Both the position numbers and the translations under genes were made by a program. Source: Sphyrna mokarran (taxonomy: Eukaryota). From it: a stretch of DNA of 64,000 nucleotides. Below, in pieces: positions 1 through 62,007 of this stretch (the stretch's first letter is position 1; the number at the start of each line of letters is the position of its first letter). The notes under the pieces were generated by a model. The model was not told where the DNA came from. It did not search any database and saw nothing but the letters and a program-made list of their open reading frames with translations. The stretch lies in NCBI GenBank assembly GCA_024679065.1, contig JAGIQG010000007.1, forward strand, positions 108,500,001 to 108,564,000, read 5' to 3'.

Positions 1-960
1 AAGGATCTCAAGCCAGTGCTGCTGGTACTAAACAAAAGGGTGAGGGGTGCTATTCAACATGCGGAGAGCACAACAAATAAATACTGGCATGTTTGCTTGT
101 GGATGCTCATGGAGAGAAGGTGGTTCCTCTTCAAAGGCACTTAGTGCCTGATTGAGGGACCTGGCATCAGAAGAGAGGGGATCCTCTGAGAACCAATCCC
201 TGACTTTACTGCCAACTTGCCCTCTCCCCATCCCTATGATGAAACCCAACACATCCTTCCCCTCCCAAATCCTCCTGTCCCCTGATACTTTACCATCACC
301 TGACACCTGTATCTGGATGCTACCTCAGTCCAAGGTCTTGGTCAGTCCATCCTCTCAGTGGTCTACTCAGGAGCTGCCAGGCTCTGATTGGCTGCAGCTT
401 TGCACACCCGAGTTAAGGCCCACTGCTGGCTTGTCAAGTGACTGAGTAGCAGCAGGCCGTCCAAGAAAAGTGACAACACAATCACCTCGCTGTCTGTCCA
501 CTGGCTGTTGAGACTCCAGTCACCACCTCAAGGTTCTGTCCATACTGTGCAGTGCATTAAAGTTCTTCTCTTTAAGGTAAGTTGAGCTATTTATACTTTC
601 CATTAATATCTTCATAAAGTATATAATGGCAGAATGGTAAATTCATTGTTTGGATGGTTATCCCATAGGCTACAGTGTAAAACCAGATATTGTAATGATT
701 GGTCTACTTCCCAATGTCATTGTGTCCAATTACAATAACATCGACACTGAGGATGCTCATTTACCCCTGCAGCACAGAGAAGTTTGATCAGGTCTGTAAT
801 CAGGTCCTACAGACCACCCCATGATCACTGATGCCTTCTGTATGATGTTAGTAGGACAAGGGAAGGGGATATTAAACAGAAATTTATGGAGTTGAGGTGG
901 AAGCTTAGGGCCAAAACAGACAGAGTGGTTATCTCTGGACTCTTGCCTGTGTCACGGGAT

Positions 961-1084
961 AGTGACTGGCCCTAATCTTGCCCTAACCAATCCTCTATTC
1001 TTAACATATCTAAAGAAAGCTTTAGGATTCTCCTTGATCCTATCAGCCAAAGTCTTCTCATGTCCCCTTTTAGCTCTCCTTAAC
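961..1084 (-). mobile_element. Inverted ~124-bp CR1 ORF2 segment inserted inside CR1 ORF1
   Basis: Reverse complement encodes LRRAKRGHEKTLADRIKENPKAFFRYVKNRGLVRARLGPVT and matches 1769-1891 with ~6-7 mismatches. ORF1 sequence is present on both sides. Confidence 0.92.
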
Positions 1085-2166
1085 AGAGAGAGGGAATGTT
1101 TGAACTCGTGGCTGCGTGGATGGTGCAGGAGGGAAGTGTTCAGGTTCCTGAACAATTGGGGCTCATTCTGGGATAGGTGGGACCTCTACAAGAGAGATGG
1201 TCTACACCTGAACCAGAGGGGAACCAATATCTTGGGGGGAAAATTTGCAAAGGCTATGCAGGGGGGTTTAAACTGATTCAGAGGGGGGGTGGGATCCTGA
1301 GTAGTTTGGATGTTAAGAGGGACGAGAATAGGGGGGTCATAGATGAGAACTGTAAAGCACAGCAGCGTACGGGTGGAGTAGGGCATGGTTTGAAATGCGT
1401 ATACTTTAATGCAAGAAGTATTTGCAATAAAGTGGAGGAACTTGCAGCTTGGATCAGTACCTGGAACTTCGATGTTGTGGCCATTTCAGAGACATGGATA
1501 GAGCAGGGACAGGAATGGATGTTGCAGGTTCCGGGGTTCAAATGCTTCAGTTGGAGTAGAGAAGGAGGTAGAAGGGGGGGAGGAGTGGCATTATTAGTCA
1601 AAGACTGTATCACAGTGACAGAAAGGATGTTTGATAGCACTTGTCTGTTGAGATAGTATGGGCTGAGATTAGAAACAGGAGAGGAGAGGTCACCCTGTTG
1701 GGAGTCTTTTATAGACCTCTTAGTGCACTGGATAGTTATAGATTAGCCAGGAGGGAGCTAAAGAGTGAGTTGAGAAGAGCTAAAAGGGGACACGAGAAGA
1801 CTTTGGCTGATAGGATTAAGGAGAATCCTAAAGCTTTCTTTAGATATGTTAAGAATAGAAGATCGGTTAGGGCAAGATTAGGGCCAGTCACAGACAGCAG
1901 TGGGAAGTTGTGCGTGGAGCCTGAAGAGATTGGAGAGGCACTGAACGAATATTTCTCTTCGGTATTCACGCAGGGAGATGTAAATGTAGTTGTGGAGAAC
2001 ACTGGGATACAGGGTTGCAAACTGGAAAGTATTGAAGTAGATAAGGAGGATGTGCTAGATATTCTTGAGGGTTTGAAGTTAGATAAGTCCCCTGGGCCGG
2101 ACGGGATTTACCCTAGGATTCTCTAGGAGGCGAGAGAGGCGATTGCAGAGCCTCTGGCTCTGATCT

Positions 2167-2960
2167 TTTTTTTTATTATTAAGCAACACAGCACGGGAAA
2201 CAGGCCCTTCGGCCCAACGAGCCCGCGCCGCCGTCATACCAAACACATTATCCTATTTTAATATTCCTATATAATAATATATATATTATTCCTACTATGG
2301 AAAATTTTCACCATAGGGACAATTTGTTACCCAATCAGCCTAAGAGCGAATTTTTGGGTTGTGGGAGGAAACCGGAGTGCCCGGAGAAAACCCACGCAAC
2401 CACGGGGAGAACGCGCAAACTCCCGCAGACACTGGCCCAATTCCAAGTGTCTGCACAGCCACATCGATAGTCTCTGAGCTGTCATGGTGCCCTTCAGGTG
2501 GTCCACATAAAGCACTCATATACGACATGAGGTACCAGGCAACCCATGAATCAACATCCAAGAGCTGTACCCGCACCACCTGCCGAATGCGTGCTAAAAT
2601 TATGGACCGAATTACCTGTGGAAAAAAGCCGTAGTTAAACAGTCCTAATATATCCCTCTATCTGCATACCGCTCATGTGGCTGTCCAAGAGACCCTTAAA
2701 CAGCCCCAGCATGCCTGCTCCCACCACCTTACTCGGCAGTGCATTCCACACCCCCACTACCCTTTGTGTGAAAAACTGCCCTCTAATATTCGTCCTATAC
2801 GTAGCCCCCCTCACCCTATGGCCATGACCTCTCGTCCTATCCATTTCTAAAGGTGGAAAAAGTTTACCTCCATTTACTCTATCTATACCCTTTATAATCT
2901 TATACACCTCTATGAGATCCCCTCTAAGCTGACGTCTTTCAAGGGAAAACAACCCCAGTC
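2167..2960 (-). mobile_element. 3' end of a second CR1 family nested in the first; its long 3' UTR contains a V-SINE core
   Basis: ORF 2635-2952 (FSLERRQLRGDLIEVYK...FFTQRVVGVWNALP) is followed on the minus strand by ~470 bp of UTR containing a V-domain (ggaggaaaccggag...gcaaactcc on +), then gggccgaagggcctgttt and an A-rich end. Host ORF2 resumes at ~2960. Confidence 0.9.
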
Positions 2961-4437
2961 TTCAGGTTACGGGTATAGTGCCGGAAGACTGGAGGATAGC
3001 GAATGTGGTCCCATTGTTCAAGGGGAATAGAGACTTTCCTGGGAATTATAGGCTGGTGAGTCTTACTTCTGTTGTGGGCAAAGTATTGGAGAGAATTATT
3101 AGGGATAGGATTTATAGTTATTTAAGAGAGAAATGAATTGATTGGGGATAGTCAGCATGGTTTTGTGAAGGGTAGGTCGTGCCTTAATAACCTCATTGAG
3201 TTTTTTGAAAAAGTGACCAAAGAGGTGGATGGGGGTAAGGCGGTTGATGTGGTATATATGGGCTTTAGTAAGGTGTTTGATAAGGTGGCCCATGGAAGGC
3301 TTCTGCAGAAAATGCAGATGTATGGGATAGAGGGTGATTTAGCTAATTGGATTAGGAATTGGCTAGCAGATAGAAGACAGAGGATGGTGGTTGATGGGAG
3401 ATATTCATAGTGGAGTTCGGTTACAAGTGGTGTACCTCAGGGATCTGTTTTGGGGCCCCTGCTGTTTGTAATTTTTATAAATGATCTGGATGAGGGTATT
3501 GAAGGATGGATTAGTAAAATTGCAGATGACACTAAAGTCGGTGGAGTGGTAGATAGTGAAGAGGGGTGTTATAGTTTGCAGAGAGACTTGGACAAGTTGC
3601 AGAGCTGGGCTGAGAGATGGCAAATGGAGTTTTATGCAGAAAAGTGTGAGATAATTCACTTTGGCAGAAAAAACAAATGTGTAGAGTATAGGGCTAATGG
3701 TAGGACTCTTAATAGTGTTGAAGAACAGAGGGATCTTGGTGTATATGTGCTTAGACCCCTGAAAGTTGGCAATCAAGTCGATAAGGTTGTTAAGAAGGCA
3801 TACGGAGTCTTAGCTTTTATTGGTAGGGGGATTGAATTTCGGAGCCGCAACGTCATGTTGCAACTGTACAAACCTCTAGTGCGGCCGCACTTGGAGTATT
3901 GTATACAGTTCTGGTCCCCGCATTATAAGAAAGATGTGGAGGCATTGGAGAGGGTACAGAGGAGTTTACCAGGATGTTGCCTGGTATGGAGGGCAGGTCT
4001 TATGAAGAGAGGCTGAGGGATTTGAGGTTGTTTTTCGTTAGAAAGGAGGCGGCTAAGAGGGGACCTAATCGAAACATATAAGATGATTAGAGGTTTAGAT
4101 AGGGTGGACAGTGATAGCCTTTTCCCTAGGATGGAGAAAGCTAGCACGAGGGGACATAGCTTTAAATTAAGGGGTGGTAGTTATAGGACGGATGTCAGAG
4201 GTAGGTTCTTTACCCAGAGGGTGGTAAGGGTATGGAATGCCCTGCCTGCTGCAGTTGTAGATGCGCCAGGTTTGGTGGCATTTAAGAGGTTAGTAGATAA
4301 GTTTATGGACGAAAAGAGAATGGTTTAGGTTAGAGGGTCATTGCTTTTTCCTAATTGGTCGGCGCAACATCGAAGGCCGAAGGGCCTGTTCTGTGCTGCT
4401 ATGTTCTATGTTCTATTCTGCCTCTACAATCCAGGAT

Positions 4438-4641
4438 GTGGAAATACCAACGTTGGACTGGGGTAAGCACAGTAAAAAGTCTTACAGCACCAGGTTAAAG
4501 TCCAACAGATTCATTTGGAATCACAGCTTTCATGATCTTCGTCACTCAACTGATGAAAAAGCAGCGCTCCGAAAGCTCGTGATTCTAAATAAACCTGTTG
4601 GACTTTAACCTGGTGTTGTGAGACTTCTTATTGTGACCATC
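4438..4641. mobile_element. Penelope-like element terminal fold-back (inverted pLTR arms)
   Basis: 4468-4530 is an imperfect inverted repeat of 4572-4635. TSD atccaggat at 4429-4437 and 4642-4650. Same sequence as the ends of the GIY-YIG-bearing copy at 34370-35697. Confidence 0.85.
4546..4581 (+). ncRNA. Minimal hammerhead ribozyme motif (stem II damaged)
   Basis: CTGATGA 4550-4556, GAAA 4571-4574, then GCTC and gtg. Stem II reads aaaagc/gctcc versus ggagc/gctc[c/t] in other copies. Confidence 0.65.
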
Positions 4642-5015
4642 ATCCAGGATTGCTTTGGTTAGCTGGGAATGTTTCCTCTTCCTATCCCACTGGAGGAGAA
4701 TCTCCCACAACCTCATGGCCTAGAATCCCCATGCAGAAAATTACTATCAAACCATGGGGCTGCCTTTGCCTGTACTCTAGGTAATGCAGCCTTATTGTCT
4801 TTTCAACATCTGTACCAGTGGTTGAGGAAGTGGAACAGCCAGTAGTCATTGTGAGCACTTCAAAAGGACTTAGCCTGTTAAAGAGAACAATAGGCTTTTA
4901 TTTGCAGCAAATACTCACTTGATATACTTGCACTTTGTGTTGTCCTCCTAATCCTGCAGCTATGTGGTCTGCTACTCAACTGCTACTTAATCAGAGGTGC
5001 AGTCTTTCAGATAAT

Positions 5016-6189: not shown

Positions 6190-6635
6190 AACAAGGAGGC
6201 CACTATACCCCTTGAGTCTCCTCTGCCATTTAATAAGATTACGGCTGATCTGTTAAGAACCTCAAATCTACATCCCACCTACCCCGGATAACCTATCACC
6301 CTCCTGCTTACCAGGAATTTCTCCACCATTGCATTATCAATATTTAAAGACTGCTTCCATTACCTTTTCAGAAAGAGAGTTCAAAGACTCAGTCCACTGC
6401 AAGAAATAGTTTTGTCTCATTTCCATTTTAATTGAGTGACCCCTTAATTTTAAAGTGTAACCTCCTGTTTCTAGATTCTCCCACAAGACGAAACATTCTC
6501 TCCACAACCACCTTGCCAAGATCCCTCAGAAACATATATGCTTCAATCAAGTTGCCTCTTACTCTTTTAACTCCAATGAATACAGGCCTTGATGGTCTAA
6601 TCTTTCCTTATAAGGCAACCTGCCCATTCCAGATG
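6190..6635 (-). mobile_element. Old CR1 ORF2 C-terminus and 3' UTR
   Basis: RLPYKERLDHQGLYSLE and LETGGYTLKLRGHSIKMEMRQNYF on the minus strand. Confidence 0.75.
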
Positions 6636-7122
6636 CTGACCGGGTCACTGCAATGCACCAATCTGTGCACGAGACCTGCACTGCCAGCCTCCCGATCGTT
6701 GTCCAGCCCCGTGAACACACATGGTTGACCATGGAAGTTTCCCACAGCCCAATTACAGGCCCTCCAAACTTGTCTGGACCAGCCTCAAGATCCCCCCCCT
6801 CCCCACCCCAATCAGCCCGCCTCAATCTCCTCCCACTAGCAGACACAATGCTACCCCTTCCGCCAGGCCGTTCCTATCTGATGCCCAGCTCCAATCGTGG
6901 CCTCCCTCCCACTGCTGCTGATCCCTCTGCAGAATGACAGCAGGACCCCTCCCACACCAATCAGCACCCAATATGTCCCATCCTCCCTTCGGCATTGGCA
7001 CTTTGCGGTTGGGTACTGCTAGGGATGATGTAAAGATGCCGACGTTGGATTGGAGTGGTAAGAACTCAGTAAGAATTTAGCAACACCAATTATTAATCCA
7101 ACCGATTTATTTGATAGTAAAA

Positions 7123-7159
7123 TAGCGAGCTTTCAACACTCCCGTGTCTTCATCAGGCA
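7123..7159 (-). ncRNA. Minimal hammerhead ribozyme motif (mirror copy)
   Basis: Exact reverse complement of the motif at 7167-7203. Confidence 0.8.
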
Positions 7160-7165
7160 CGGCAC

Positions 7166-7203
7166 TTGCCTGATGAAGACACGGGAGTGTTGAAAGCTCG
7201 CTA
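7166..7203 (+). ncRNA. Minimal hammerhead ribozyme motif
   Basis: ttgc CTGATGA a GACAC ggga GTGTT GAAA GCTC gc; core at 7170-7176 and 7192-7195. Confidence 0.8.
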
Positions 7204-8337
7204 TTTTACTATCAAATAAATCGGTTGGATTAATAATTGGTGTTGCTAAATTCTTACTGAGTTCTTACTGCTAGGGAGCCAGGATGGCGCTGGCAATGCC
7301 AGGGGCATCGCCCTCACCCCTGATGTTCGGGGGTCCTCGATGGCTGCCCTTCATTACAGTGGGGTTTAGCTGCCAGTTCCCTGCTCATGGGGAGCTGTTT
7401 TAAACCCCACTAGAGTGAAACACAGCGATGGAGGGAAGGGTGATGAAACATAAGCAGGTCCAGAGATTTCAGTCCCATGCCAGATAATAACATTCAAATG
7501 GTCATTTATATACTTTATACAATTCCGCGGTAGAAATTAACGAAGAGCTGGCATTGCCAGAAACCCAGTGCCCCAAGATTCGTAGAAGCCGCGGCGGCCA
7601 GTGGGAAGCCCGCTAGAAGGTCTCCGTTTTAACAGCACAGCGTCACAATCTTGAACAGAATATAAATAAATCAAACAAAATCAACTGGCTTGTTAGAGTA
7701 AAAAGATCAGAAAATTATAATTTTCATGAAATAAAGCTTATTTTCTGCATTTCTGAAATGTATTCTTGAAGTATTATGTAAATGTCCTCTTAGAAAATAG
7801 TTTTTCAAAGAAAACTTTGAACCAATTTTACAGATGAATTTTACAACCTGCTTGAAGTTTCTAATATCCCAGAGGTGCTCAGATGTTTAGTATCAATGTT
7901 AAGTCTTTTATATATTACAAAGAACGTGCAGCAGATAGACAAGCCATTCAGACCAAACACTTTGTGCCAGTCTTTATGCTGCACACAAGCCTCCTTGTAT
8001 TTTACATCACTTCACTCTGCAAACATGTCATTCCATTCCTCCCTCCCCATTGTATTAGTTCAGTTTTCCCTTAAATGCATTTATGCCATTAGCCTCAGCT
8101 ACTCCACGTGGTAGCATCGAGGTATATAAACAAGTTTGGATTGTTAGTGACTATCTTCCATGTAAGGCCTGTAACTATAAAGTAAAGATTTCTAAAACTT
8201 CATTTGTTTTAACATAATGGAGGAGTTTTATGCCAGGCTGATTGGTGAGCATAGCAGAAGCAGTAGTGAGTGGCTCACCAGCTCCCACCAGTCCCAAGGT
8301 CCCCACACACTTATACAATGGCAGCCAATTACTTACT

Positions 8338-25870: not shown

Positions 25871-25910
25871 GGGACTAAGAGAAGAGAATTATTCTTGAAA
25901 AATAGTAAGA

Positions 25911-26258
25911 AATAGAACATAGAACATTACAGCGCAGAACAGGCCCTTCAGCCTTCGATGTTGCGCCGACCAATTAGGAAAAAGCAATGACCCTCCAAAC
26001 TAAACCATTCCCTTTTCGTCCATAAACTTATCAACTAACCTCTTAAACGCCACCAAACTTGGCGCATCTATAACTGCCGCAGGCAGGGCATTCCATACCC
26101 TTACCACCCTTTGGGTAAAGAACCTACCTCTGACATCCGTCCTATAACTATCACCCCTTAATTTAAATCTATGTCCCCTCATGCTAGCTTTCTCCATCCT
26201 AGGAAAAAAGCTATCACTGTCCACCCTATCTAAACTTCTAATCATCTTATATGTTTCA
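25911..26258 (-). mobile_element. CR1 3' end (young family, as 851-4416)
   Basis: ORF 26000-26245 MIRSLDRVDSDS...FFTQRVVRVWNALP; (catagaa)n tail. Confidence 0.93.
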
Positions 26259-26261
26259 TTA

Positions 26262-26850
26262 AGGTAGGAACCGGAGCAGGCAAAAATAGGAACAGGAGCA
26301 GGCTGTTTGGCTTCTCAAGTCCGCTCTGCCATTCAATAGAATCATGGCTGATCTGACGTTCCTCACGTTTATTTGTCTGCCCTTTCCCTGTAACGCTTGA
26401 TCCTCTTACTGATCAAATATTTCTCTATTTCAGCCTTAAATATACACGAGGACTCTGCCCCCACAGCTGTCTGTGGCAAGGAGATCCAAAGACTCTTAAT
26501 CCTGCGAGAGAAGAAATTCCTCCTCATTTCAGTCTTAAATTTTCACCCCTTTATTCTGAGACTATGCCTTCTGGCCCTAGACTCACCCATAAGAGGAAGT
26601 GTCCTCTCACACTTGCCCTATCAAGTCCCTTAAGAATCCTACATGTTCCAAAGAGATCATGTCTTATTCTTCAAAATTCCAATGAGTAAAATTCCAACTT
26701 GTTTAACCTTTCCTCGTAAGACAATCCCTGTATACTGGGGATCATCCTAGTGAACTTCTCTGAACTGCCTCTGATGCAGTAATATGTTTCCTTAAGTTAA
26801 GGGGTCCAAAACTGCTCCCAGTGCTTCCGATGTGGCCTCACTAGTTCTTC
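26262..26850 (-). mobile_element. CR1 3' fragment, older family
   Basis: ggaacaggagcaggc tail and degenerate ORF2 C-terminus; similar to 49293-49833. Confidence 0.8.
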
Positions 26851-33300: not shown

Positions 33301-33490
33301 CCTACCTGATAATCCAGCAAACAAATCTTCAATTAAAGGAAGCAGATATTGATCATCACATAATACTGGATTTATGGTTCTTTTAAAGTCACTACAAATA
33401 TGAACTGTATGACATGTACAATTGGGGTAACGCAGTCAATCATTGTATCTAGCTCTAACACACCAATCAGATACACAGGTTGTACTAATA

Positions 33491-33830
33491 TATAAGATGA
33501 TTAGAGGTTTAGACAGGGTGGACAGTGATAGCCTTTTTCCTAGGATGGAGAAAGCTAGCACGAGGGGACATGGCTTTAAATTAAGGGGTGGTAGTTCTGG
33601 GATGGATATCAGAGGTAGGTACCCAGAGGGTGGTAAGGGTATGGAATGCCCTGCGAGCTGCAGTTGTAGATGCGCCAAGTTTGGTGGCGTTTAAGAGGTT
33701 AGTAGATAAGTTTATGGATGAAAAGAGAATGGTTTAGGTTAGAGGGTCATTGCTTTTTCTTTACTGGTCGGCGCAACATCAAAGGCCAAAGGGCCTGTTC
33801 TGCGCTGTAATGTTCTATGTTTCTATGTTT
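33491..33830 (+). mobile_element. CR1 3' end inserted in Gypsy
   Basis: YKMIRGLDRVDSDSLFPRMEK, tail tgttctatgtttctatg, TSD ctaatat at 33485-33491 and 33831-33837. Confidence 0.92.
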
Positions 33831-34767
33831 CTAATATCCTCTTCAGTCTTAGGGTAACTTGCAAATTGTAGTGCTGTTGTTTTAAGACGCATTGGATTAC
33901 TATTAGACGTCATCTTGAGTTTCACTTGAATTCCTTTCATTGAGCCAGGTCTCTCTTTGAAAACACTCTGGAAGGTACTGTAGGTCTGTTTTGAAACAGT
34001 GTGTTGACAGTACTCCAGTTAAGTATTATCTTCTTGAACCATGATCTCCCAAATAGAGCTGGAAAATTACTGCGGGCCACATAGAGAGGCAATTCCGTTG
34101 TTCACTCAACTCTATGTTAACCATGATGTAAAATTTTAATGGCCCAATCTCTTCCATGTATGGCTTTAAAATCACATCAACCAATTTTAAAGGAAGCAGC
34201 ATCATCTTTCTCCATATGTTGTCTCAAGAATTAAATACATAGCAGCACCAGTATCAACAGTTTTCCCAATAAGTTGACCACTCAACTTCAAAATCACCCT
34301 AAATCTGTGATTTACCCTGTATTGATGTTAAGTTGGAGTTCTTCATCATATTCCTGGACATTTTATTCTGACAATACCAGGGTAAAGTTCAACAGGTTTA
34401 TTTGGTAGCAAAAGCCACTAGATTTCGAGCGCTACTCCTTCGTCAAGTAAATGGGAATTCCATTCACAAATGGGGCAGACAAAGGCACACACTCAATTTA
34501 CAAAATAATGGTTGGAATGTGAGTCTTTACAGGTAATCAATGTGAGTGGAGACAGGGTTAAGCACAGGTTAAAGAGGTGTGTATTGTCTCCAGCCAGGAC
34601 AGATAGTGAGATTTTGCAAGCCCAGGCAAGTCTTGGGGGTTACAGATAGTGTGACATGAACCCAAGATCCCGGTTGGGGCCATCCTCATGTGTGTGGAAC
34701 TTGGCTATCAGTCTCTGTTCAGTGATTCTGCATTGTCATGCGTTGTGAAGACTGCCTTGGAGAATGC

Positions 34768-35057
34768 TGCAGAAGAGGATGTCGCGAAGCATGGTACACT
34801 GGGGAGACCATGCAGATGTTATGACAATGGATGAATGAACACCACTCGACAAATACCAGGCTGGAGTGTTCTCTTCCTGTTGGGGAACACTTCAGCAGTC
34901 ATGGGCATTCAGCCTCTGATCTTTGGATAAGCATTCTCCAAGGCAGCCTTCATGACACACGACAACGCAGAATTGCTGAGCAGAGACTGATAGCCAAGTT
35001 CCGCACATAAGAGGATGGCCTCATCTGGATTTTGGGTTCATGTCACACTATCTGTAA
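34768..35057 (+). pseudogene. PLE GIY-YIG endonuclease C-terminal fragment
   Basis: CRRGCREAWYTGETMQML*QWMNEHHS...LPVGEHFSSHGHS...RRIAEQRLIAKFRT*EDGL (YxGET, H, E and GLN-like motifs); two stops. Confidence 0.85.
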
Positions 35058-35263
35058 CCCCTATGATCTGCCTGGGCTTGTAAAATCTTACTAACTATCC
35101 CAGCTGGAGATAAAATACATCTCTTTAACCTGTCTTAACCCTCTCTCCACTGACATTGTCTGTACCTTTTAAGACTTGATTACCTGTAAAGACTCGCATT
35201 CCAGCTATTATTTTGTAAATTGAGTTTGTGTCTGCCCTGTTTGTGAACAGAGCTCCCTCTTAC

Positions 35264-35563
35264 AAAAAACAAAGAACAAAACAGCAAGGGAAACAGGCCC
35301 TTCAGCCCAACGAGCCCGCGCCGCCACGCTGATGTTCCCACCTTTACCCGTGATCCCTGTCCATGTTTATAGATCTATGGATTAAAAATCAAATTTGAGA
35401 CAATTTAGGGAGAATTTGTTTTGCCAATTAGCCTAAGAGCACATCTTTGGGATGTGGGAGGAAACCGGAGCACCTGGAGAAAACCCATGCAAGCACGGGG
35501 AGAATGCGCAAACTCCCTCAGACACAAGCCCAAATCCATGTATCTGCACAGCACAGCGATAGT
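35264..35563 (-). mobile_element. Headless V-core element related to the CR1 3' UTR at 2167-2475
   Basis: Shares gggaaacaggccctt..cccaacgagcccgcgccgcc, gcctaagagc, the V-core and tctgcacagc..cgatagtc. cttac is duplicated at 35259-35263 and 35566-35570. Confidence 0.85.
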
Positions 35564-35565
35564 CA

Positions 35566-35603
35566 CTTACCTGACGAAGGAGCAGTGCTCTGAAAGCTAG
35601 TGG
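35566..35603 (+). ncRNA. Minimal hammerhead ribozyme motif
   Basis: tac CTGACGA a GGAGC agt GCTCT GAAA GCTA gtg; core at 35571-35577. Confidence 0.75.
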
Positions 35604-37198
35604 CTTTTGCTGCTAAATAAACCTGTTAGACTTTAACCTGGTGTTGTGAGACTTCTTACTGTGTTTACCGTAATCCAACCCCGGCGTCTCCACATCGTTT
35701 TATTCTTCACAGTCGTAATTCTTTTCTTCCATGTTGTAAATTATTTTTATAAGATGCAACTTTGTTGTTCTTCTTGAAGGTATCCAAAATCTTTGTATGA
35801 ATATTCTTCCTCGGAAGAGTGAACTAGCCCAGCAAGTTTTTGCAATATGACCCAGTTTGCCACAATTCTTGCATTAACTCTCCTTTTTCCAACATTAACT
35901 CCTTGAATGGTCAATTTTTTCACATCTGTGACATGCTTGTTGCTGATTTGACTTCTTATGGGCAGTTCTTAACTTGTGGATCTTCACTCCTGAATCAAAT
36001 TTTGAAGGAAACCTCATTAGCAGCCAGTTCCATTAACATTGCAATTTCTACTTCTGTCTTTAAAGTCAAAACATATTCAGTAATCAATCTTCTTTGGATA
36101 AACTTATTTTGGAGACCACAAACTAGACGATCTTGAAGAGTATCTTCTAATGACTCACCAAACTCTCAATGTTGTGCCAGCATTTTTAAGGTTGCCACAA
36201 ACTGAGCAAAGCTTTCACCTTTCACTTAATTCCTTCAGTAGAACCTGAACCGTTCTGCTATCATCAATAGCTTTGGAAAGTAATGCTCTTCAAAGATCTT
36301 TGTCAAGTCTTTGTAAGTTTTAGTTCCTTGCTTTGATGAACCACGTTTCAGAGCAAATTGAAGATTCTCCTTCTTTTTACGAGCAACTCATTTTCAATTT
36401 TATTTGCTTGTACAAAGTACTGAAAACACTCTGATAGAATTTTATTGGCATGCCCACCTCGATTTTGGGGCAGGTGAGGCTTGCAGAACAGAATTCTCTA
36501 TTGGCTTCCAATGAGATTTTATGAGCCTCGTCTAAGTGAGATTGTAAAATACTGGCTCATGATTGAAAGGGCCAATGGTACCTAATTGATCTGCCATTTC
36601 TCTTGCAGGCACTAGAAACTCTAGAATACTCATTCTTTTTTACTGTCTTGTCGGTTTTTAACCTGGAGATCGTTAACTTGATTTTCTTTTCAAACTGTAT
36701 AACAAAGCATTCCTCTTTTCCAGAATACTGCCTGGAATCTCATCCTTTTCCCTCTTTTAAAACTACACAGGGGGCTTTTTACTTACTTGATCTTTCCGGC
36801 ACTGGCACTTCAATCTTTAATGCTGTTATTGAATCTCTCCAACCTTCTAATATTCAAAGTCTGAAGACCCACAATGTATTTTTTTCTCCTGAGGATGTGT
36901 TCTCAATGGAACAAAATCCAAACACGCCATCGATTTTCTTTATGTAAAGTCTAAACTATGTTAGGGGCTGTGGGTTTTACACAAAAAGAAAAAGATGTGG
37001 ATTAGGCACACACATTGAAACTAACAAGAATAGATTTATTGTAAGAGATCTTTTGTTTTAAGAGTACAAAGTAAAAGTAAAATGCAGCACTTGCAAAACC
37101 CTAAAGACATCACCATCAAATCATATGATCGACTCTTCAAGCAATCATGTGACCACTTAAATATATAACCGTCTCTAATTCCCCAGCGCAATCGTTAA

Positions 37199-37320: not shown

Positions 37321-38385
37321 CTTAAACCTTTTGGCATAGGTTTTCACCCTCTGGCACCGTCTGTCACTCTCCAAAACAGTCTCTCACTCTCTAAAACAGT
37401 TGCTAACTTGCCAGTAAAATATGACTGCAGCAAGAATGCTGGTCATAATCAGCCCAGGTATATATAACTTTTTCAATTTGTTCTTTAACTCATTCTGGGC
37501 CGGGGAGGGGGGTGGTGGTGAAGAAGTGCTATTGCGGACCCGACAACAATCTATTGACTTTCGTTGTCAAGTGCATTTCTACCTCCCCTGTCCCTTCATC
37601 CACCCCCCTCCCAACACCTCTGTACACAACTCCCCTTATTGCAATCTCTCCTCATTTCCCACTTACAATCATTCTTTAGCTATCTATGAATCTGACTAGA
37701 ATTTGAATCATCTACCACTTTTAAGCAGGAGTCATTGTTGGAATATGTAGTTGAGCCCTGGTGCTCACCTCAGTCTCCTGTTCCGTGAATTTCAGGCAGC
37801 TTGATCCCCACTTTAACATTGCAAAACCCTGTATAAATACAGTACTTTTTTGTGCTTTTTATATTCAGTTTGATTCTCTGTTATTTAGGAATCTCATATT
37901 TATCATAAACTTTGGTTTTCTGTCCCACAATGTCTTGTACTTGTGTCTTGCCCATTCACTGGGTGCTATTTTACCATTTTGATTCCAAGTGTTGGCTGGA
38001 TTTGAAATTGGAAGTATTTCAGATCTGACTTTTAGACTGTTCTCAGGCGTCCTATACACACTTCAGCTGAAAAACTGTGAGCAATTCTGAATTGCGTTGC
38101 AGAAGCCTGTGGGTGGGGTTTAACATGCCCGAAATCCTGCACCTCCGATTGGCACCTTCAATTGCACATGTACAGAAATAAAGAGCTGGAATGCGGCTCC
38201 CCTGTCACATCGCTCCCGACCAGCTAATGCCTCCCTCTGACCCTCACAGATATTGCTCCATCCCCACAAGTAATCCCACAAGATTACTCTCCCTCACCAC
38301 CCAGACTGATTGCGGGCCCCTCCCCTCTTATGCCCCCCACGAATCTCAGCCAGAGTGGAAGTGGACTCCCTCCTTCTCCCTCACT

Positions 38386-39708
38386 GGTCACAGGCAGAGT
38401 GACAGCAGACCTCGCTTCACTATCATTGATCACAGGCAGAGTGACAGCAGACCTCGCTTCACCATCATTGATCACAGGCAGAGTGACAGCAGACCTCGCT
38501 TCACTATCATTGATCACAGGCAGAGTGACAGCGGACCCTGCTTCCCCATCACTGATCACAGGCAGAGTGACAGCGGACCCTACTTCCCCATCATTGATCA
38601 CAGGCAGAGTGACAGCAGACCCTGCTTCACCATCACTGATCACAGGCAGAGTGACAGCGGACCCTGCTTCCCCATCATTGATCACAGGCAGAGTGACAGC
38701 AGACCCTGCTTCCCCATCACTGATCACAGGCAGAGTGACAGCGGACCCTGCTTCCCCATCACTGATCACAGGCAGAGTGACAGCGGACCCTGCTTCCCCA
38801 TCACTGATCACAGGCAGAGTGACAGCGGACCCTGCTTCCCCATCACTGATCACAGGCAGAGTGACAGCGGACCCTGCTTCCCCATCACTGATCACAGGCA
38901 GAGTGACAGCGGACCCTGCTTCCCCATCACTGATCACAGGCAGAGTGACAGCGGACCCTGCTTCCCCATCACTGATCACAGGCAGAGTGACAGCGGACCC
39001 TGCTTCCCCATCACTGATCACAGGCAGAGTGACAGCGGACCCTGCTTCCCCATCACTGATCACAGGCAGAGTGACAGCGGACCCTGCTTCCCCATCACTG
39101 ATCACAGGCAGAGTGACAGCGGACCCTGCTTCCCCATCACTGATCACAGGCAGAGTGACAGCGGACCCTGCTTCCCCATCACTGATCACAGGCAGAGTGA
39201 CAGCGGACCCTGCTTCCCCATCACTGATCACAGGCAGAGTGACAGCGGACCCTGCTTCCCCATCACTGATCACAGGCAGAGTGACAGCGGACCCTGCTTC
39301 CCCATCACTGATCACAGGCAGAGTGACAGCGGACCCTGCTTCCCCATCACTGATCACAGGCAGAGTGACAGCGGACCCTGCTTCCCCATCACTGATCACA
39401 GGCAGAGTGACAGCGGACCCTGCTTCCCCATCACTGATCACAGGCAGAGTGACAGCGGACCCTGCTTCCCCATCACTGATCACAGGCAGAGTGACAGCGG
39501 ACCCTGCTTCCCCATCACTGATCACAGGCAGAGTGACAGCGGACCCTGCTTCCCCATCACTGATCACAGGCAGAGTGACAATGGACCCTGCTTCACCATC
39601 ATTGATCACAGGCAGAATGACAGCGGACCCTGCTTGCCCATCATTGATCACAAGCAGAGTGACAGCGGATCGTGCTTCACTATCATTGATCACAGGCAGA
39701 GTGACAGC
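38386..39708. repeat. 42-bp minisatellite, 31.5 units
   Basis: Unit gatcacaggcagagtgacagcggaccctgcttccccatcact; 20 identical units at 38722-39561 and variant units at both edges. Confidence 0.98.
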
Positions 39709-43460: not shown

Positions 43461-45706
43461 ATAGAATCTCTACAGTGCCAAAGGAGGCTATTCAGCCTGT
43501 CAGTCTGCATTGACTTTCATAGAACATAGAACATTACAGCACAGAACAGGCCCTTCGGCCTTCGATGTTGCGCCGACCAATATAAAAAGCAATGACCCTC
43601 CAAATTAAACCATTCCCTTCTCTTCCATATACTTATCAACTAACATCTTAAACGCCACCGAACTTGGCGCATCTACAACTGCTGCAGGCAGGGCATTCCA
43701 CTCCCGAACCACCCTTTGGGTAAAGAACCTACCTCTGATATCCGTCCTATAACTATCACCCCTTAATTTAAAGCTGTGTCCCCTCGTGCTAGCTTTCTCC
43801 ATCCTAGAAAAAGGCTATCACTGTCCACCCTATCTAAACCTCTAATCATCTTATATGTTTCAATAAGATCCCCTCTTAGCCGCCTCCTTTCTAACGAAAA
43901 CAACCTCAAATCCCTCAGCCTCTCTTCATAAGACCTGCCCTCCATACCAGGCAACATCCTGGTAAACCTCCTCTGTACCCTCTCCAATGCCTCCACATCT
44001 TTCTTATAATGTGGGGACCAGAACTGCACACAATACTCCAAGTGCGGCCGCACTAGAGTTTTGTACAGTTGCAACATGATGCTGCGGCTCCGAAATTCAA
44101 TCCCCCTACCAATAAAAGTTAAGACTCCATATGCCTTCTTAACAACTTTATCCACTTGACTGCCTACTTTCAGGGATCTATTGACACATACACCAAGATC
44201 CTTCTGTTCCTCAACACTATTAAGAGCCCTACCATTAGCCCTATACTCTACACATTTATTGTTCCTGCCAAAGTGCATTACCTCACACTTTTCCACATTA
44301 AACTCCATTTGCCACCTCTCGGCCCAGCTCTGCAACTTGTCCAAGTCACTCTGTAAACTATAACACCCCTCTTCACTATCTACCACTCCTCCGACTTTAG
44401 TGTCATCTGCAAATTTACTGATCCATCCCTCAATACCCTCATCCAGATCATTTATAAAAATTACAAACAGCAGGGTCCCCAAAACAGACCCCTGAGGTAC
44501 ACCACTAGTCACCGAACTCCACGATGAATATCTCCCATCAACCACCACCCTCTGTCTTCTATCTGCTAGCCAATTCCTAATCCAATTAGCTAAATCACCC
44601 TCTATCCCATACATCTGCATTTTCTGCAGAAGTCTTCCATGGGCCACCTTATCAAACGCCTTACTAAAGTCCATATATACCACATCAACCGCCTTACCCC
44701 CATCCACCTCTTTGGTCACTTTTTCAAAAAACTCAATAAGGTTAGTAAGGCACGACCTACCCTTCACAAAACCATGCTGACTATCCCAATCAATTCATTT
44801 CTCTCTAAATAACTATAAATCCTATCCCTAATAATTCTCTCCAATAATTTGCCCACAACAGAAGTAAGACTCACTGGCCTATAATTCCCTGGAAGGTCTC
44901 TCTTCCCCTTCTTGAACAATGGGACCACATTCGCTATCCTCCAGTCCTCCGGAACCACACCCGTAACCAACGACGACCTGAAGATCAGAGCCAGAGGCTC
45001 TGCAATCTCCTCTCTTGCCTCCCAGAGAATCCTAGGGTAAATCCCGTCCGGCCCAGGGGACTTATCCAACTTCAAACCCTCGAGAATTTCTAGCACATCC
45101 TCCCTATCTACTACAATACTTCCCAATTTGCAACCCTGTACCTCAGTGTTCTCCATAGCTACATTTCCAGCACTCTGCGTGAATACCGAAGAGAAATATT
45201 TATTCAGTGCCTCACCAATCTCTTCAGGCTCCACGCACAACTTCCCACTGCTGTCTATGACTGGCCCTAATCTTGTCCTAACCAATCTTCTATTCTTAAC
45301 ATATCTGAAGAAAGCTTTAGGATTCTCCTTAATCCTATCAGCCAAAGTCTTCTCATGTCCCCTCTTCGCTCTCCTCAATTCACTCTTTAGCTCAAAGACA
45401 GAGCTAAAGGGTACTTTCTGACAGAGTACCTTACCCAGACCCACTCCTCTCACCCTATCCTCATAATCTCACATATATACGCTGATAATCCCACTAACCT
45501 ACACATCTTGGGGCACTAAGGAACAACTTACCATGGCTAATCCACCTAATCAGCACACTTTTCTCTCTATGAAGGAAACTGGAGCACCCAGAGCAAACCC
45601 ACGCAGACACGGACAGTTTGCAAACTCCATACAGTCACACAAGCTGTGAATCAAACTTAGGTCCCTGATGCTATCAGGTAGCAGTGCTAACTATTGTGCT
45701 ACCGTG
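43461..45706 (-). mobile_element. HE1-type V-SINE split by the CR1 at 43519-45412
   Basis: Tail at 43461-43518 and remainder at 45413-45706 join into one SINE; actttc is duplicated at the junctions. Confidence 0.8.
43519..45412 (-). mobile_element. Young 5'-truncated CR1 with complete RT domain, two frameshifts
   Basis: ORFs 44764-45453, 43763-44767 and 43605-43802: NYRPVSLTS, VYMDFSKAFDKV, GVPQGSVLG, FADDTK, HLEYCVQFWSP. TSD actttc at 43513-43518 and 45413-45418. Confidence 0.96.
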
Positions 45707-55635: not shown

Positions 55636-55733
55636 TGATGCATCTGCAGCTGGCAGGTTGGTGGGGATGAGGTCAAGTATGTTTCCTCTTGCTGGTTCCC
55701 TTACTACACAATCTAGCAGCTATGACATTTAGG

Positions 55734-56552
55734 GTGCTGATGCTGGTGTTGGACTGCGGTAAACACAGTAAGAAGTCTGACAACACTAGGTTTAAGTCCA
55801 ACCGACTTATTTGATAGTAAACTTGCAAGCTTTCAGGGTTTGCCCCTTTGTCAGGCGAATGGAGAGTTCTGGCCTCAGACAGAACAGATAACAGCACAGA
55901 CAGTTTACAGATTACTGATTAGAATGCGAATCTTTACACCTAACCTGCTATTGAAGTCTTTAGTGGCCAACAATGTGAGTGGAAGAAGCATTAAGCCCAG
56001 GTTAAAGAGATGTGTATTGTCTCCAGACAGTACAGTAAGGTTTTGCAAACCCAGGCAAGTCATGGGGGTTACAGATAGTGCGACATGAACCCAAGATCCC
56101 AGTTGACACCATCCTTATGTGTGCAGAACTTGGCTATCAGTCTCTGCTCAGCGACTCTGCACTGCCGTGTGTCGTGAAGGCCAACTTAAGAATGCTTACC
56201 TGAGGTTGAATGTCCGTGACCACTGACCTTGGCTCAGCAAGGATCCTGGGTTCATGTCGCACTATCTGTAACTTGGGTTTGCAAAACGTCATTTACTATC
56301 CTGTCTGCAGACAATACACATCTCTTTACCTGGGCTCAATGCTCCTTCACTCACATTGTTGGCCACTTTATGGTTAGTTGTAAAGACTTGCATTCTAATC
56401 AGTAACCTGTAAACTGTCTGTGCTGTTATCTGCGCTGTCTGAGGCCAGAACTCTCCATTCGCCTGGTGAAGGGACAAACACCAAAAGCTTGTGAGTTTAC
56501 TATCAAATAAATCAGTTGGACTTAAACCTGATGTTGTCAGACTTCTTACTGG
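55734..56552. mobile_element. Penelope-like fold-back, second subfamily
   Basis: Left arm (55765-56100) is inverted relative to the right arm (56240-56550). TSD atttagg at 55727-55733 and 56553-56559. Degenerate hammerheads at 55823-55858 (-) and 56459-56494 (+). Confidence 0.88.
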
Positions 56553-57327
56553 ATTTAGGACCCTTCCAGCTTGGTCTGTGTGGTACTACCGAGCCACTCT
56601 CAGTGATGGGCTTTAAGTCCTCAACCCAGAGTATGTTCTGTGCCTTCACCATCTTAGTGCTTCCTTCAAATGGTATTCAACACGGAAGAGTAATGATTCA
56701 TTAGCTGTGGGGGAACAGTATGCGATAATCAACCGGAGGTTTCCTTGCCGCCATGAGACTCTACGGGATCCAGAGTCGATATTGAGGGCTCCCCTCTCAA
56801 CTGTATACCACTGTGCCATCACCTTTGCTGGGTCTGTTCTGCCAGTGAGTCAAGACATACCTAGGGACTGTGATGTGTTGTCTGGGACATTATCTTTAAG
56901 GTATGTTCCGTGAGTATGACAATGTCAGGCTGTTGCTTGACTAGTCTGTGACAGCTTTCTCAATTTTGACAGATATTAGTAAGAAGGACTTTGCAATGTT
57001 GACAAGGCTGGGTTTTCCATTATCGTTTCCAGTGCCTAGATTGATGCCCAGTGGTCTGTCCAGTTTTATTCCTTTGTGTTTTCTTTGTAGTGATTGATTA
57101 CAATTGAGTGACTTGCTAAGCCTTTCGGAAAGCAACCACATTGCTGTGGATCTGGAGTTACAGGTAGACTAGGTCAGGACGCAGACTTCTTTTCCTAAAC
57201 ACATTAGTTAACTAGAGTTGGGATTTTTTTTCATGAATTAACACTTGTTTCACGGTCATTATTAGAATTTTAATTACAGATATTTTATGGATTTTAAATT
57301 CCACCATCTGCTGTGGTGGAATTCAAA

Positions 57328-58033
57328 GCAAGAAATCTCACGACACCAGCTTAAAGTCCAGCAGGTTTATTTGACAGCACAAGCCACAAGCTTTTGGAGC
57401 ACTTGCTGTTCCTTCATCAGGTGAGTGGGAGTTCTGTTTTCAAACAGGGCATATAAAGACAAAACTCAATTTATAAAATAGTGGCTGGAATACAAGTCTT
57501 TACAGGTAATCAAGTCTTAAAGGTTCAGATAACGTGAGTGGAGAGAGGGTTAAGCATAGGTTAAAAAGATGTGTATTGTCTCCAGCCAGGACAGTAAGTG
57601 AGATTTTGCAAGTCCAGGCAAGTCGTGAGGGTTACAGATAGTGTGACAAGAACCCAAAATCCTGGCTGAGGCCATCCTCACGTGTGCGGAACTTGGCTAT
57701 CAGTTTCTGCTGATAGATCAGAGGCTGAATGCCAGTGACTTCGAGTAAGCGTTCTCCAAGGCGGCCTTCGCAACACACGAACAATGTGGAATCGCTGAGC
57801 TTAACCTTGTGCTTAACCTTCTTTCCACTCACATTATCTATACCTTTAAAACTTGATTACCTGAAAAGACTTGTGTTCTAATCATTATTTTGTAAATTGA
57901 GTTTGTGTCTGCATATGCCCTGTTTGTGAACAGAACTCCCACTCATCTGATGAAGGAGCAGCGCTCTGAAAGTTTGTGACTTGTGCTACCAAATAAACCT
58001 GTTGGACTTGAACCTGATGTTGTGAGTCTTTTT
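57328..58033. mobile_element. Penelope-like fold-back
   Basis: Minus arm encodes QQKLIAKFRTREDGLSQDFGFLSHYL (GIY-YIG end). Inverted arm at 57800-58033. Hammerhead cores at 57414-57420 (-) and 57947-57953 (+). Confidence 0.88.
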
Positions 58034-58269
58034 GTGAGGAATTACAGGAGGCTAGAAGATGGGCAACAATAAAGGCACAGATCATGATAGAAAGGAGAAT
58101 GTTACCTTCTTGAGAGATGATAACATTTATGTTTATGTGTTCACTGCCACAGCATCTCTGCAATCCTAACAATCCTAACTGGATGTCTGTGACTCTCTCA
58201 AAGCCTCTTGTGTTCACAACTACAATATCAGCAGTCTGAGCTTTTATGACAAAGGACTGACTTTGAATT

Positions 58270-59880
58270 ACAGGATTCTGAGCTTCCACTCAGTGCTCAT
58301 GTATTAGTGGCAGCTAAATGCTGCAATAGAAGCTGAGCTGTCAGCCATCAGATGCTGCATCATGGTTAGTTCTGCAGATATTCAGATGTAGTTCACTATC
58401 TTGTCCACACTGGAAAGCAAAGTACTGGACTTCTCCATGCTCCTTAACGTTGCACCCAGGCTGTCTGGTTGGTCTGACAAAGCACTGTGCATATGGGCCA
58501 GCCTACATGATCAAAGTGCTCATCTGAATTCTCTGCACAGAACTCACGTGTGACTTCATTGTTAGGCGAGCTAGCATTTATTCTACCTTTGTCAACTGTC
58601 CTAGCCAGACATGCTTGGTGGCTCATTACATGCAGATCCCATTTTGAAAATGTCCTTCAATTGGGCAAATAGTTAGTATCTGAGCTGGTGACTGCAAGAA
58701 TGATAGCGAGTGACATGTTGCTTTTTGTCACTCTCCACCTTTCCCTGCACAGCCTGGCAATGTAGTTTGAAAGAAAAAGGTGCAAGAGGAAGAGGGACAA
58801 AGCAAGAGGGCTAGAAGTGCGTGTCTACCTCATCTGTAGAATCAGATGAGATTATGGGAAGGGAAGGGAAATGGGGTGTGAAAAGGAAGATCGTCGATAA
58901 GAGTGCTTTGATGGTTTGAGCTCTGCCACTCATTAACTCAGCAATCACTGTCTGCTTCAATCAAGTAAGAATTTAGCAACACCAATTTTTAATCCAACCG
59001 ATTTATTTGATAGTAAAATTGCGAGCTTTCAACACTCTGTGTCTTACTCAGGCAAATGCAGTGTTCTGGTCTGCAATAGCACACATCAGCACAGACAGTC
59101 AGAGATTGCTGATTAGAATGCGAATCCTTACATCTAACCTGCTATTCAAGTGTTAAAGTGGCGAACAATGGGTGTGAAGGGAATCCTGAGCATTGTTAGA
59201 GAATTGTGTATTTTCTCCAGACAGCACAGTAAGTGAGGTTTTTTGCTAACCCAGGCAAGTTACGGGGGTTACAGATAGTGTGTCATGAAGCCAAGATCCC
59301 TGTTAAGACCGTCCTCATGTGTGCGGAGCTTGGCTATTAGTCTCTGCTCAGCGACTCTGCGCTGTCGTGTATCACGAAAGCCTTCAATCAAGGGCATACC
59401 TATTCCTAGTTAGTTTGTTCTATGTTCTTTGTCCTGCAAAAGAGATGGAAATGCGTCAGTGAATGTGGTGCAATCTATTTTGATGACAAACATGCCAAGG
59501 TTAAATAGATGGTAGTGTGTACAAGCTGTGAAATGTGGGTGTGAGGCTTGCAGCCATGCTAACTATTTGAGAGTGATGTTAGATATGAGTCATGATTAAC
59601 AGAGATTGCTGCCACGTCAGCGATGGTGGTGTGGTGTTTTGTACACTATGTAGGGTTAGTGGTGCAGTGGGTGAGATATGGCATTTGAAGATATGTTTAC
59701 TCACTTGCTCACTTTTGAGATGTTTGGACTATCTTGCACCACTGCCTTCTCATCTGCAGAACTTCCTGTGAATAGACCCCCTCTCTCCTTATCACTTCCT
59801 GCATCAAAGTTTCCAGCCCACTGTCCTCTATGCTGTACCTTTTCTGCTTATTTCACACATCAAAGCTGCTTTTAAAACAG
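58270..59880 (-). mobile_element. Decayed Harbinger-type accessory ORF remnant
   Basis: MHSALSDQPDSLGATLRSMEKSS...MMQHLMADSSASIAA; resembles 12100-12350. By-eye resemblance only. Confidence 0.3.
58966..59381 (-). mobile_element. Penelope-like 3' end, single arm (subfamily of the 7026 fold-back)
   Basis: Encodes DTRQRRVAEQRLIAKLRTHEDGLNRDLGFMTHYL. TSD cttcaatcaag at 58955-58965 and 59382-59392. Hammerhead variant at 59019-59055. Confidence 0.9.
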
Positions 59881-61405: not shown

Positions 61406-61523
61406 ATAGAACATAGAACCTTACAGCGCAGAACAGGCCCTTTGGCCTTCGATGTTGCGCCGACCAATTAAGAAAAAGCAATGACCGTCTAACCTAAACC
61501 ATTCCCTTTTCATCCATAAACTT
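61406..61523 (-). mobile_element. CR1 3' UTR fragment (young family)
   Basis: catagaacatagaac...gttgcgccgaccaatt...ccataaacttat. Confidence 0.9.
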
Positions 61524-62007
61524 ATGGATGATGTGATACCCGATATCACATCACCCCCTCCCAATCTTTCTCCTACCAGCAAAAATAGGATCTGACGGAA
61601 TGGAAGGTAGGACTTCTGGATCCAGAATTCCTGCGCCATTTTAGATCAAGCGCAGAATCTTCATGATTCACCAAAAACCTGGGCTCTTGTCACTCCTGTA
61701 ACCTTTAGACCCATTTTGATTGGGATGTCAGCCTTCGGCATTTTAATGAGGCTAAACCATGATGAGTGATAAATCACGGCGCCACTAGTTGGGTCCATTG
61801 CCAAGAGAGTTGTCTCTCCGTGAACGCACTGACTCTTGCTGGGGAAGGGATTCAGAGGCATGCAAACGCTCAAGGACCTCACACTTTTTTTATCCTGGTG
61901 TCCAGTATGTGTGTGCATTGAAAGGCTATTTGAACACTGAGGGAATCACATTTGAGCTTAATTTTGTCTTCTTCATTCAATATTCACACATATATGGAGT
62001 ACATATA

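Follow-up and report, generated by a model that had tools for sequence, protein, structure and literature searches.

Structure of the insert

Positions 7014 to 7277 of the window (the whole 64-kb stretch of DNA analysed) hold a 240-bp hairpin between the two copies of a TSD (Table 1; element positions, +n or -n, are counted from the C of the CUGAUGA core). The arms are 100% complementary across 102 nt and enclose a 7-nt loop; arm alignment and flank comparison bear out the perfect 102-bp arms, the 7-nt loop and the 12-bp TSD described in an earlier note on this DNA. That note also took the insert to be a ribozyme plus downstream terminus, mirrored, but the mirroring is incomplete: 32 nt of tail sequence, overlooked earlier, separate the left TSD copy from the left arm and have no partner on the right side, where the first 3 nt of the TSD overlap the arm end. 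The view that the arms stop 3 nt upstream of the core holds for the left arm alone; the right arm reaches 12 nt upstream, the two being joined over 2 shared nt, and the "loop" is parent sequence. The insert has no ORF because both arms stop just past the ribozyme, and this copy is probably a dead end. A host coding exon was not found in the 64-kb window; its long ORFs are pieces of LINE RT and a 42-nt tandem array.

Table 1. Features of the insert and its flanks.
Feature	Positions	Strand	Basis or remark
TSD, left copy, 12 bp	7014..7025	.	flank comparison
PLE tail, 32 nt, on a single side, +99..+130 from ribozyme C3	7026..7057	-	tail terminates on the start-codon A of the ORF
Left arm, inverted pLTR piece, +98 to -3, tail-bearing	7058..7159	-	
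Minimal hammerhead motif, helix I just 2 bp	7127..7156	-	core search and pairing check
2-nt microhomology at the head-to-head joint	7158..7159	.	same joint in L034 minus the T>G change
Loop, parent pLTR sequence 5' of the ribozyme, T>G variant	7160..7166	+	variant at 6 other places
Right arm, tail-less pLTR piece; element sequence -12 to +98 is 7158-7268	7167..7268	+	
Minimal hammerhead motif; predicted cut after 7199	7170..7199	+	core search and pairing check
TSD, right copy, 12 bp	7266..7277	.	its first 3 nt are shared with the pLTR end

Hammerhead motifs

Each strand carries one hammerhead core, as had been proposed (CUGAUGA...GAAAGCU, at 7170-7198 on the plus and 7128-7156 on the minus strand); four such core motifs were observed in the 64-kb window vs 0.08 expected. 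An Rfam search returned no match reaching the gathering score, and the ribozyme 33-mer has 2,287 exact matches in the 2.77-Gb genome. The conserved core and helix II of a minimal hammerhead are present, helix II comprising 5 bp with a G-U closing pair, and helix III is a 4-nt palindrome of the dimer type. A helix I of 4-5 bp was found on neither strand: it consists of 2 bp, a mismatch and 1 bp on the plus strand and of 2 bp on the minus strand, and is 4 bp long in the older copies at 58964 and 35564. Metazoan PLE minimal hammerheads, as outlined by Cervera and de la Pena (2014; PMC4209133), similarly have the core boxes, an extra nucleotide before helix II and a palindromic helix III stub, but combine a helix I of 4-5 bp with G10.1-C11.1, in place of the 2 bp and G10.1-U11.1 of the shark insert. 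Opposite-strand pairs of minimal hammerheads reported in the same 2014 paper lie 100-700 bp apart, whereas the cores of the shark insert are only 13 nt apart.

The whole insert is predicted to fold into a 102-bp stem (-181.4 kcal/mol, z -28), while the isolated ribozyme stretches fold no better than shuffles (z -0.13 to 0.84). The predicted fold supports the earlier suggestion that a transcript would bury its hammerhead in the stem; whichever strand is read, the antisense arm would be transcribed first. A check for expression listed no RNA record, although run X2 may be of RNA. Since helix I is weak, helix II closes with G-U, helix III is of the dimer type and the stem spans 102 bp, both hammerheads are predicted to be inactive, with nil cleavage. 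Dimer-type hammerheads with a short helix III are described as showing no cleavage as single motifs in the part of the literature considered here (PMC4209133).

The parent element

That the insert is a PLE insertion is virtually certain. The parent unit is ~3 kb long and its long ORFs match RVT_1 in 4/4 copies and GIY-YIG in 3/4 (Pfam), the latter slightly below threshold (scores 21.2-21.4 against a cut-off of 22.6, E 3e-4) and with the motif seen directly. The 893-aa ORF of L092 contains DKG and YIDD, a C-x4-C-x2-C linker at residue 755 and VY..YIG at 793. In two copies (L119 and L231) the tail continues into the ORF, its end being the start codon. Stretch 335-1479 of L119 is a complex copy that includes a partial tandem; there the tail enters the ORF and then jumps back to the pLTR.

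Parent copies thus possess the ORF typical of EN+ PLEs, RT with a C-terminal GIY-YIG, and the Zn-finger-like motif between RT and EN that marks the Neptune clade; the inverted 5'-truncated pLTR, the 32-nt tail at one end, the TSD and the hammerhead motif in the pLTR complete the set. The Neptune-type layout of RT, Cys linker and GIY-YIG has been described (Craig et al., 2021; PMC8557442), and an inverted truncated pLTR, a one-sided tail and a TSD form the PLE signature as summarized in published accounts (Arkhipova et al., 2013; PMC3846280; PMC8557442). EN+ PLEs of the Neptune clade share with the shark family, as far as these accounts describe them, the RT and C-terminal GIY-YIG ORF, the Cys linker, an inverted 5'-truncated copy, a tail of 30-40 bp at one end, a TSD and the pLTR hammerhead; the shark insert differs in that both arms end just past the ribozyme, leaving no ORF. 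In Adineta Pen2a and Anolis PAc, as partly documented, the tail ends inside the ORF, whereas in the shark family it ends at the start codon. The parent is a PLE with a Neptune-type Cys linker, a putative Neptune member by domain layout. The insert is a young, real, dead-end PLE copy of known architecture.

Two-armed copies are a regular product of the family

The locus is ordinary in itself; its value is that of one data point in a young family whose joints can be counted. The first 100 ribozyme 33-mer matches on contig C1, 99 of them retrieved, gave an unselected sample of 68 insertions, comprising 39 with two head-to-head arms, 28 with one arm and 1 complex copy (at BLAST sensitivity). The 28 single-armed insertions imply, at that sensitivity, that two-arm products are not obligatory. 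When arms ending at or downstream of -25 are called short and those extending beyond -25 long, both arms are short in 18 of the two-arm insertions, both are long in 20 and the classes are mixed in 1 (Fisher p 3e-10). Short near-identical hairpins therefore make up 18/68 sampled insertions, which, extrapolated from contig C1 alone, would correspond to roughly 400 genome-wide. The fallback offered in the earlier note, a one-off PLE truncation, fits the loop, which is unique, but is incomplete, as such hairpins are a regular product of the PLE family. Among long copies, two PLE insertions 9 kb apart (L077 and L105, G000:C1:14232400-14245200) have the same joint (-627/-2184), probably through local duplication.

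A probable origin by priming from two target ends

The insert is a young, doubly 5'-truncated PLE copy, and it probably arose when two reverse transcriptions, each primed by the target, converged head to head. The PLE endonuclease would cut both target strands ~12 nt apart; priming would take place from one target end at the tail end (the AUG) and from the other some 35-45 nt further upstream, at the pLTR end; each cDNA would extend over the short region as far as a putative RNA 5' end 15-20 nt upstream of the ribozyme; and the cDNA 3' ends would pair over 2 nt and be filled in, by analogy with L1 twin priming. In LINE-1 twin priming, a single RNA is primed from both ends of the target, and microhomology joins the products. 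There the second primer copies a different, upstream part of the RNA, whereas in the shark insert both would copy the same part, giving a palindrome.

Several family counts point to two copying events. Among 103 short two-arm copies, a selected set, 100 have the tail on a single arm and 0 have it on both; the other 3 have a tail with an insertion, a short tail or belong to an older subfamily. The tail arm is the longer in 40 of these 100 copies, the tail-less arm in 53, and 7 have equal arms; in the present insert it is the tail-less arm that is longer. When the tail-less arm is longer, each arm has sequence that the other lacks; such a pair requires two rounds of copying and cannot come from one folded-back cDNA, barring a subsequent deletion at the centre. 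TSD length ranges from 10 to 15 bp across the family (12-14 bp in 76/85), clean TSDs being found in 85/98 pairs. In the 85 clean-TSD copies, target overlap at both outer ends averages 1.8 nt vs a rough chance value of 0.4-0.7, a figure that may be inflated by the TSD search, which takes the longest match.

The two arms of short pairs share the 50/50 allele at +33 in 67/70 cases, which indicates that they mostly derive from one RNA or one locus. Long arms, by contrast, disagree at upstream variable sites at near independent rates (e.g. 6/8 at -557 and 5/10 at -296), a pattern at odds with a single RNA having served both arms of long copies.

An experimental parallel exists in the Anolis Poseidon PAc system, where, in the portion of the study considered here, the PLE protein cuts and extends both strands in vitro, reverse transcription starts at two sites bounding the tail, and the ribozyme is not required for insertion (Frangieh et al., 2024; PMC11167929). 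The Anolis starts occur without target homology, unlike the overlap of ~1.8 nt at both ends of the shark copies, and head-to-head joints such as those of the shark family are left unexplained in that portion (PMC11167929). The formation of tandem and inverted PLE ends is called undefined in a section of another report (PMC8557442). A literature search on PLE twin priming and inverted ends found no such account by title or abstract start, which is not proof of its being unpublished.

Arm ends near the ribozyme

Arm ends cluster just upstream of the ribozyme. In the 99 arms of the 68 unselected insertions on C1, 36 ends fall at -1 to -25 and 4 at -26 to -50 (hand count; p 2e-7). Genome-wide, 71 breaks are found at -15 and 59 at -20, vs 25 at -24, the sole control position for this pile-up, and 1,630 copies run past -25; breaks that were checked proved to be true ends in 29/30 cases at -15, 27/30 at -20 and 22/25 at -24. 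Single-arm copies end at these two positions as well, both G residues, and abut target DNA there. The simplest reading of the pile-up, drawn from DNA ends only, would be an RNA 5' end at -15/-20.

Splicing was considered as a cause, both ends following AG, and was rejected because single-arm copies show unrelated flank upstream and not a common exon. Ribozyme-cut RNA was also considered as a possible template: true ends are more frequent at the cut site (41 among 46 matches) than at one control position (11/11), a comparison confounded by a 5-bp inverted repeat at the cut site that accounts for many joints there, and clean single-arm ends, 9 at the cut site vs 3 at the control, do not differ significantly (hand count; p 0.15). 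In L181-L210, arms ending at -15 are mostly preceded by T, possibly an untemplated addition at an RNA end, and often by filler copied from nearby element sequence.

Alternative origins of the palindrome

The strongest competitor, which we regard as unlikely but worth weighing, accepts a PLE origin and derives the palindrome from a single cDNA or antisense template that folded back and primed itself, trimming of the centre following afterwards. Centre deletions are known from long palindromes, and such a deletion after insertion could be an alternative source of loops in either orientation. Recurring joints coincide with short inverted repeats in the parent, with 3-bp arms at -8/-3 and 5-bp arms around +30, as fold-back would have it, and the near-constant sharing of alleles between arms (67/70) suits it as well; in the relevant passage, Arkhipova et al. 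(2013; PMC3846280) interpret junction palindromes as self-priming. Against this stand the 53/100 copies, including the present insert, in which the tail-less arm is longer and each arm has sequence absent from the other, together with the 3/70 short pairs that differ at the 50/50 site, the filler of up to 20 nt in some joints, the priming-type overlap at both outer ends and a multi-kb asymmetry that occurs in both directions (L076 vs L092 and L093). Overall, the counts for the one-arm tail, for either arm being longer, for length classes and for ends at -15/-20 favour two-ended priming over self-priming.

From the counts, exact outcomes can also be predicted for the in vitro PLE assay already in use. 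A more tentative extension, which we put forward as a speculation, is that the shark family documents, genome-wide, the way in which PLEs come by inverted ends: an enzyme acting as a dimer would start on the same 5' portion of the RNA from either target end, a perfect hairpin of 240-280 bp would thus be the default outcome (~1/4 of insertions), arm ends would map the start sites of the element, and the hundreds of hairpins would act as dsRNA sources silencing the parent.

The earlier note had raised the prospect of an orientation-independent mini retroelement family and had named recurrence of the loop as the point to check; such a family would be non-autonomous and copied as a unit. Copies of ~238 nt, 96-98% alike, do occur on many contigs, and one junction has 13 exact matches genome-wide; the exact loop of the insert, however, has 1 match in the 2.77-Gb genome, a result that the note itself had set as refuting a family. 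The joint of the insert recurs in L034 apart from one T>G, a change that occurs at 6 other places. A 5-nt slip at the common junction might also have produced the loop by duplication, but the T>G is already present in parent sequence at those 6 places. The commoner junction, a neighbour of that in the insert, is found in either orientation relative to the tail (7 vs 6) and with differing family alleles at +32/+33, which implies that these junctions formed independently; it recurs in the CUGAGGA variant, and the tail-less ends of its copies range from +86 to +100. It represents repeated outcomes guided by a small inverted repeat of the parent, not copies of one master, and junction positions across the family are spread out. 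A shared combination of junction, orientation and ends was not found among the copies, and the mini-element reading is largely refuted, its probability being very low. Non-LTR retrozymes, as partly described in a preprint (bioRxiv 10.64898/2026.07.22.740005), likewise have a short PLE-derived unit with a hammerhead, but are head-to-tail tandems able to form dimeric ribozymes; head-to-tail units were not found in the shark insert, a single head-to-head pair. Upstream of its match, L223 has a tandem run of a ~22-nt unit holding the ribozyme first box, present at least 4 times.

Slightly less probable still, and hardly to be expected, is an older insertion whose arms have stayed identical through conversion of one by the other, or which is retained for a dsRNA or ribozyme function, for which the absence of any arm difference and the great stability of the hairpin could be cited. 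Identical arms, however, are found in 40 of 69 short pairs sharing at least 75 nt, a selected set assembled from several searches; the remaining 29 pairs have 35 differences in 6,409 paired nt, mostly at CpG, with few shared private changes. Conversion, as invoked earlier, is not needed for perfect arms because many sibling pairs are perfect too and youth suffices; the other option of that note, a very young insertion, is upheld. In addition, the unpartnered tail departs from the common family form at 1/32 nt, and helix I is weaker than in the older subfamilies.

There is next to no chance that the palindrome is a fold-back read or assembly artefact: although a loop-spanning contig was absent among the 8 of 103 matching records listed, the TSD that the earlier note had asked for is present, as are the one-sided tail and the asymmetric loop, clean TSDs occur in 85/98 sibling pairs, and contigs of run X1 (possibly the sample from which the genome was assembled) cross both outer junctions (6600-7054 and 7247-7700) with zero differing letters. 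An empty site was found at none of 288 fetched loci, run X3 covering 6855-7000 only.

Other repeats in the window

The repeats of the window look like those of a cartilaginous fish. Five further PLE insertions, all of older subfamilies, lie at 4430-4650, 34360-35700, 55730-56560, 57330-58040 and 58964-59385, and four of them are head-to-head. The copy at 4438, earlier described as cut near the core, does have a left arm ending inside the ribozyme, but it belongs to an older subfamily and has one core, not two, because of that cut. The copy at 58964 has a broken core, CUGAGUA, yet a 4-bp helix I. A 42-nt tandem array at 38368-39708 (31.9 copies matching at 96%) has three frames open over more than 500 codons and is likely a minisatellite. 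Young LINE copies with RT-like ORFs, 90-95% alike, which we take to be CR1-like, are found at 960-4420, 25910-26265, 33487-33821, 43519-45468 and 61406-61525.
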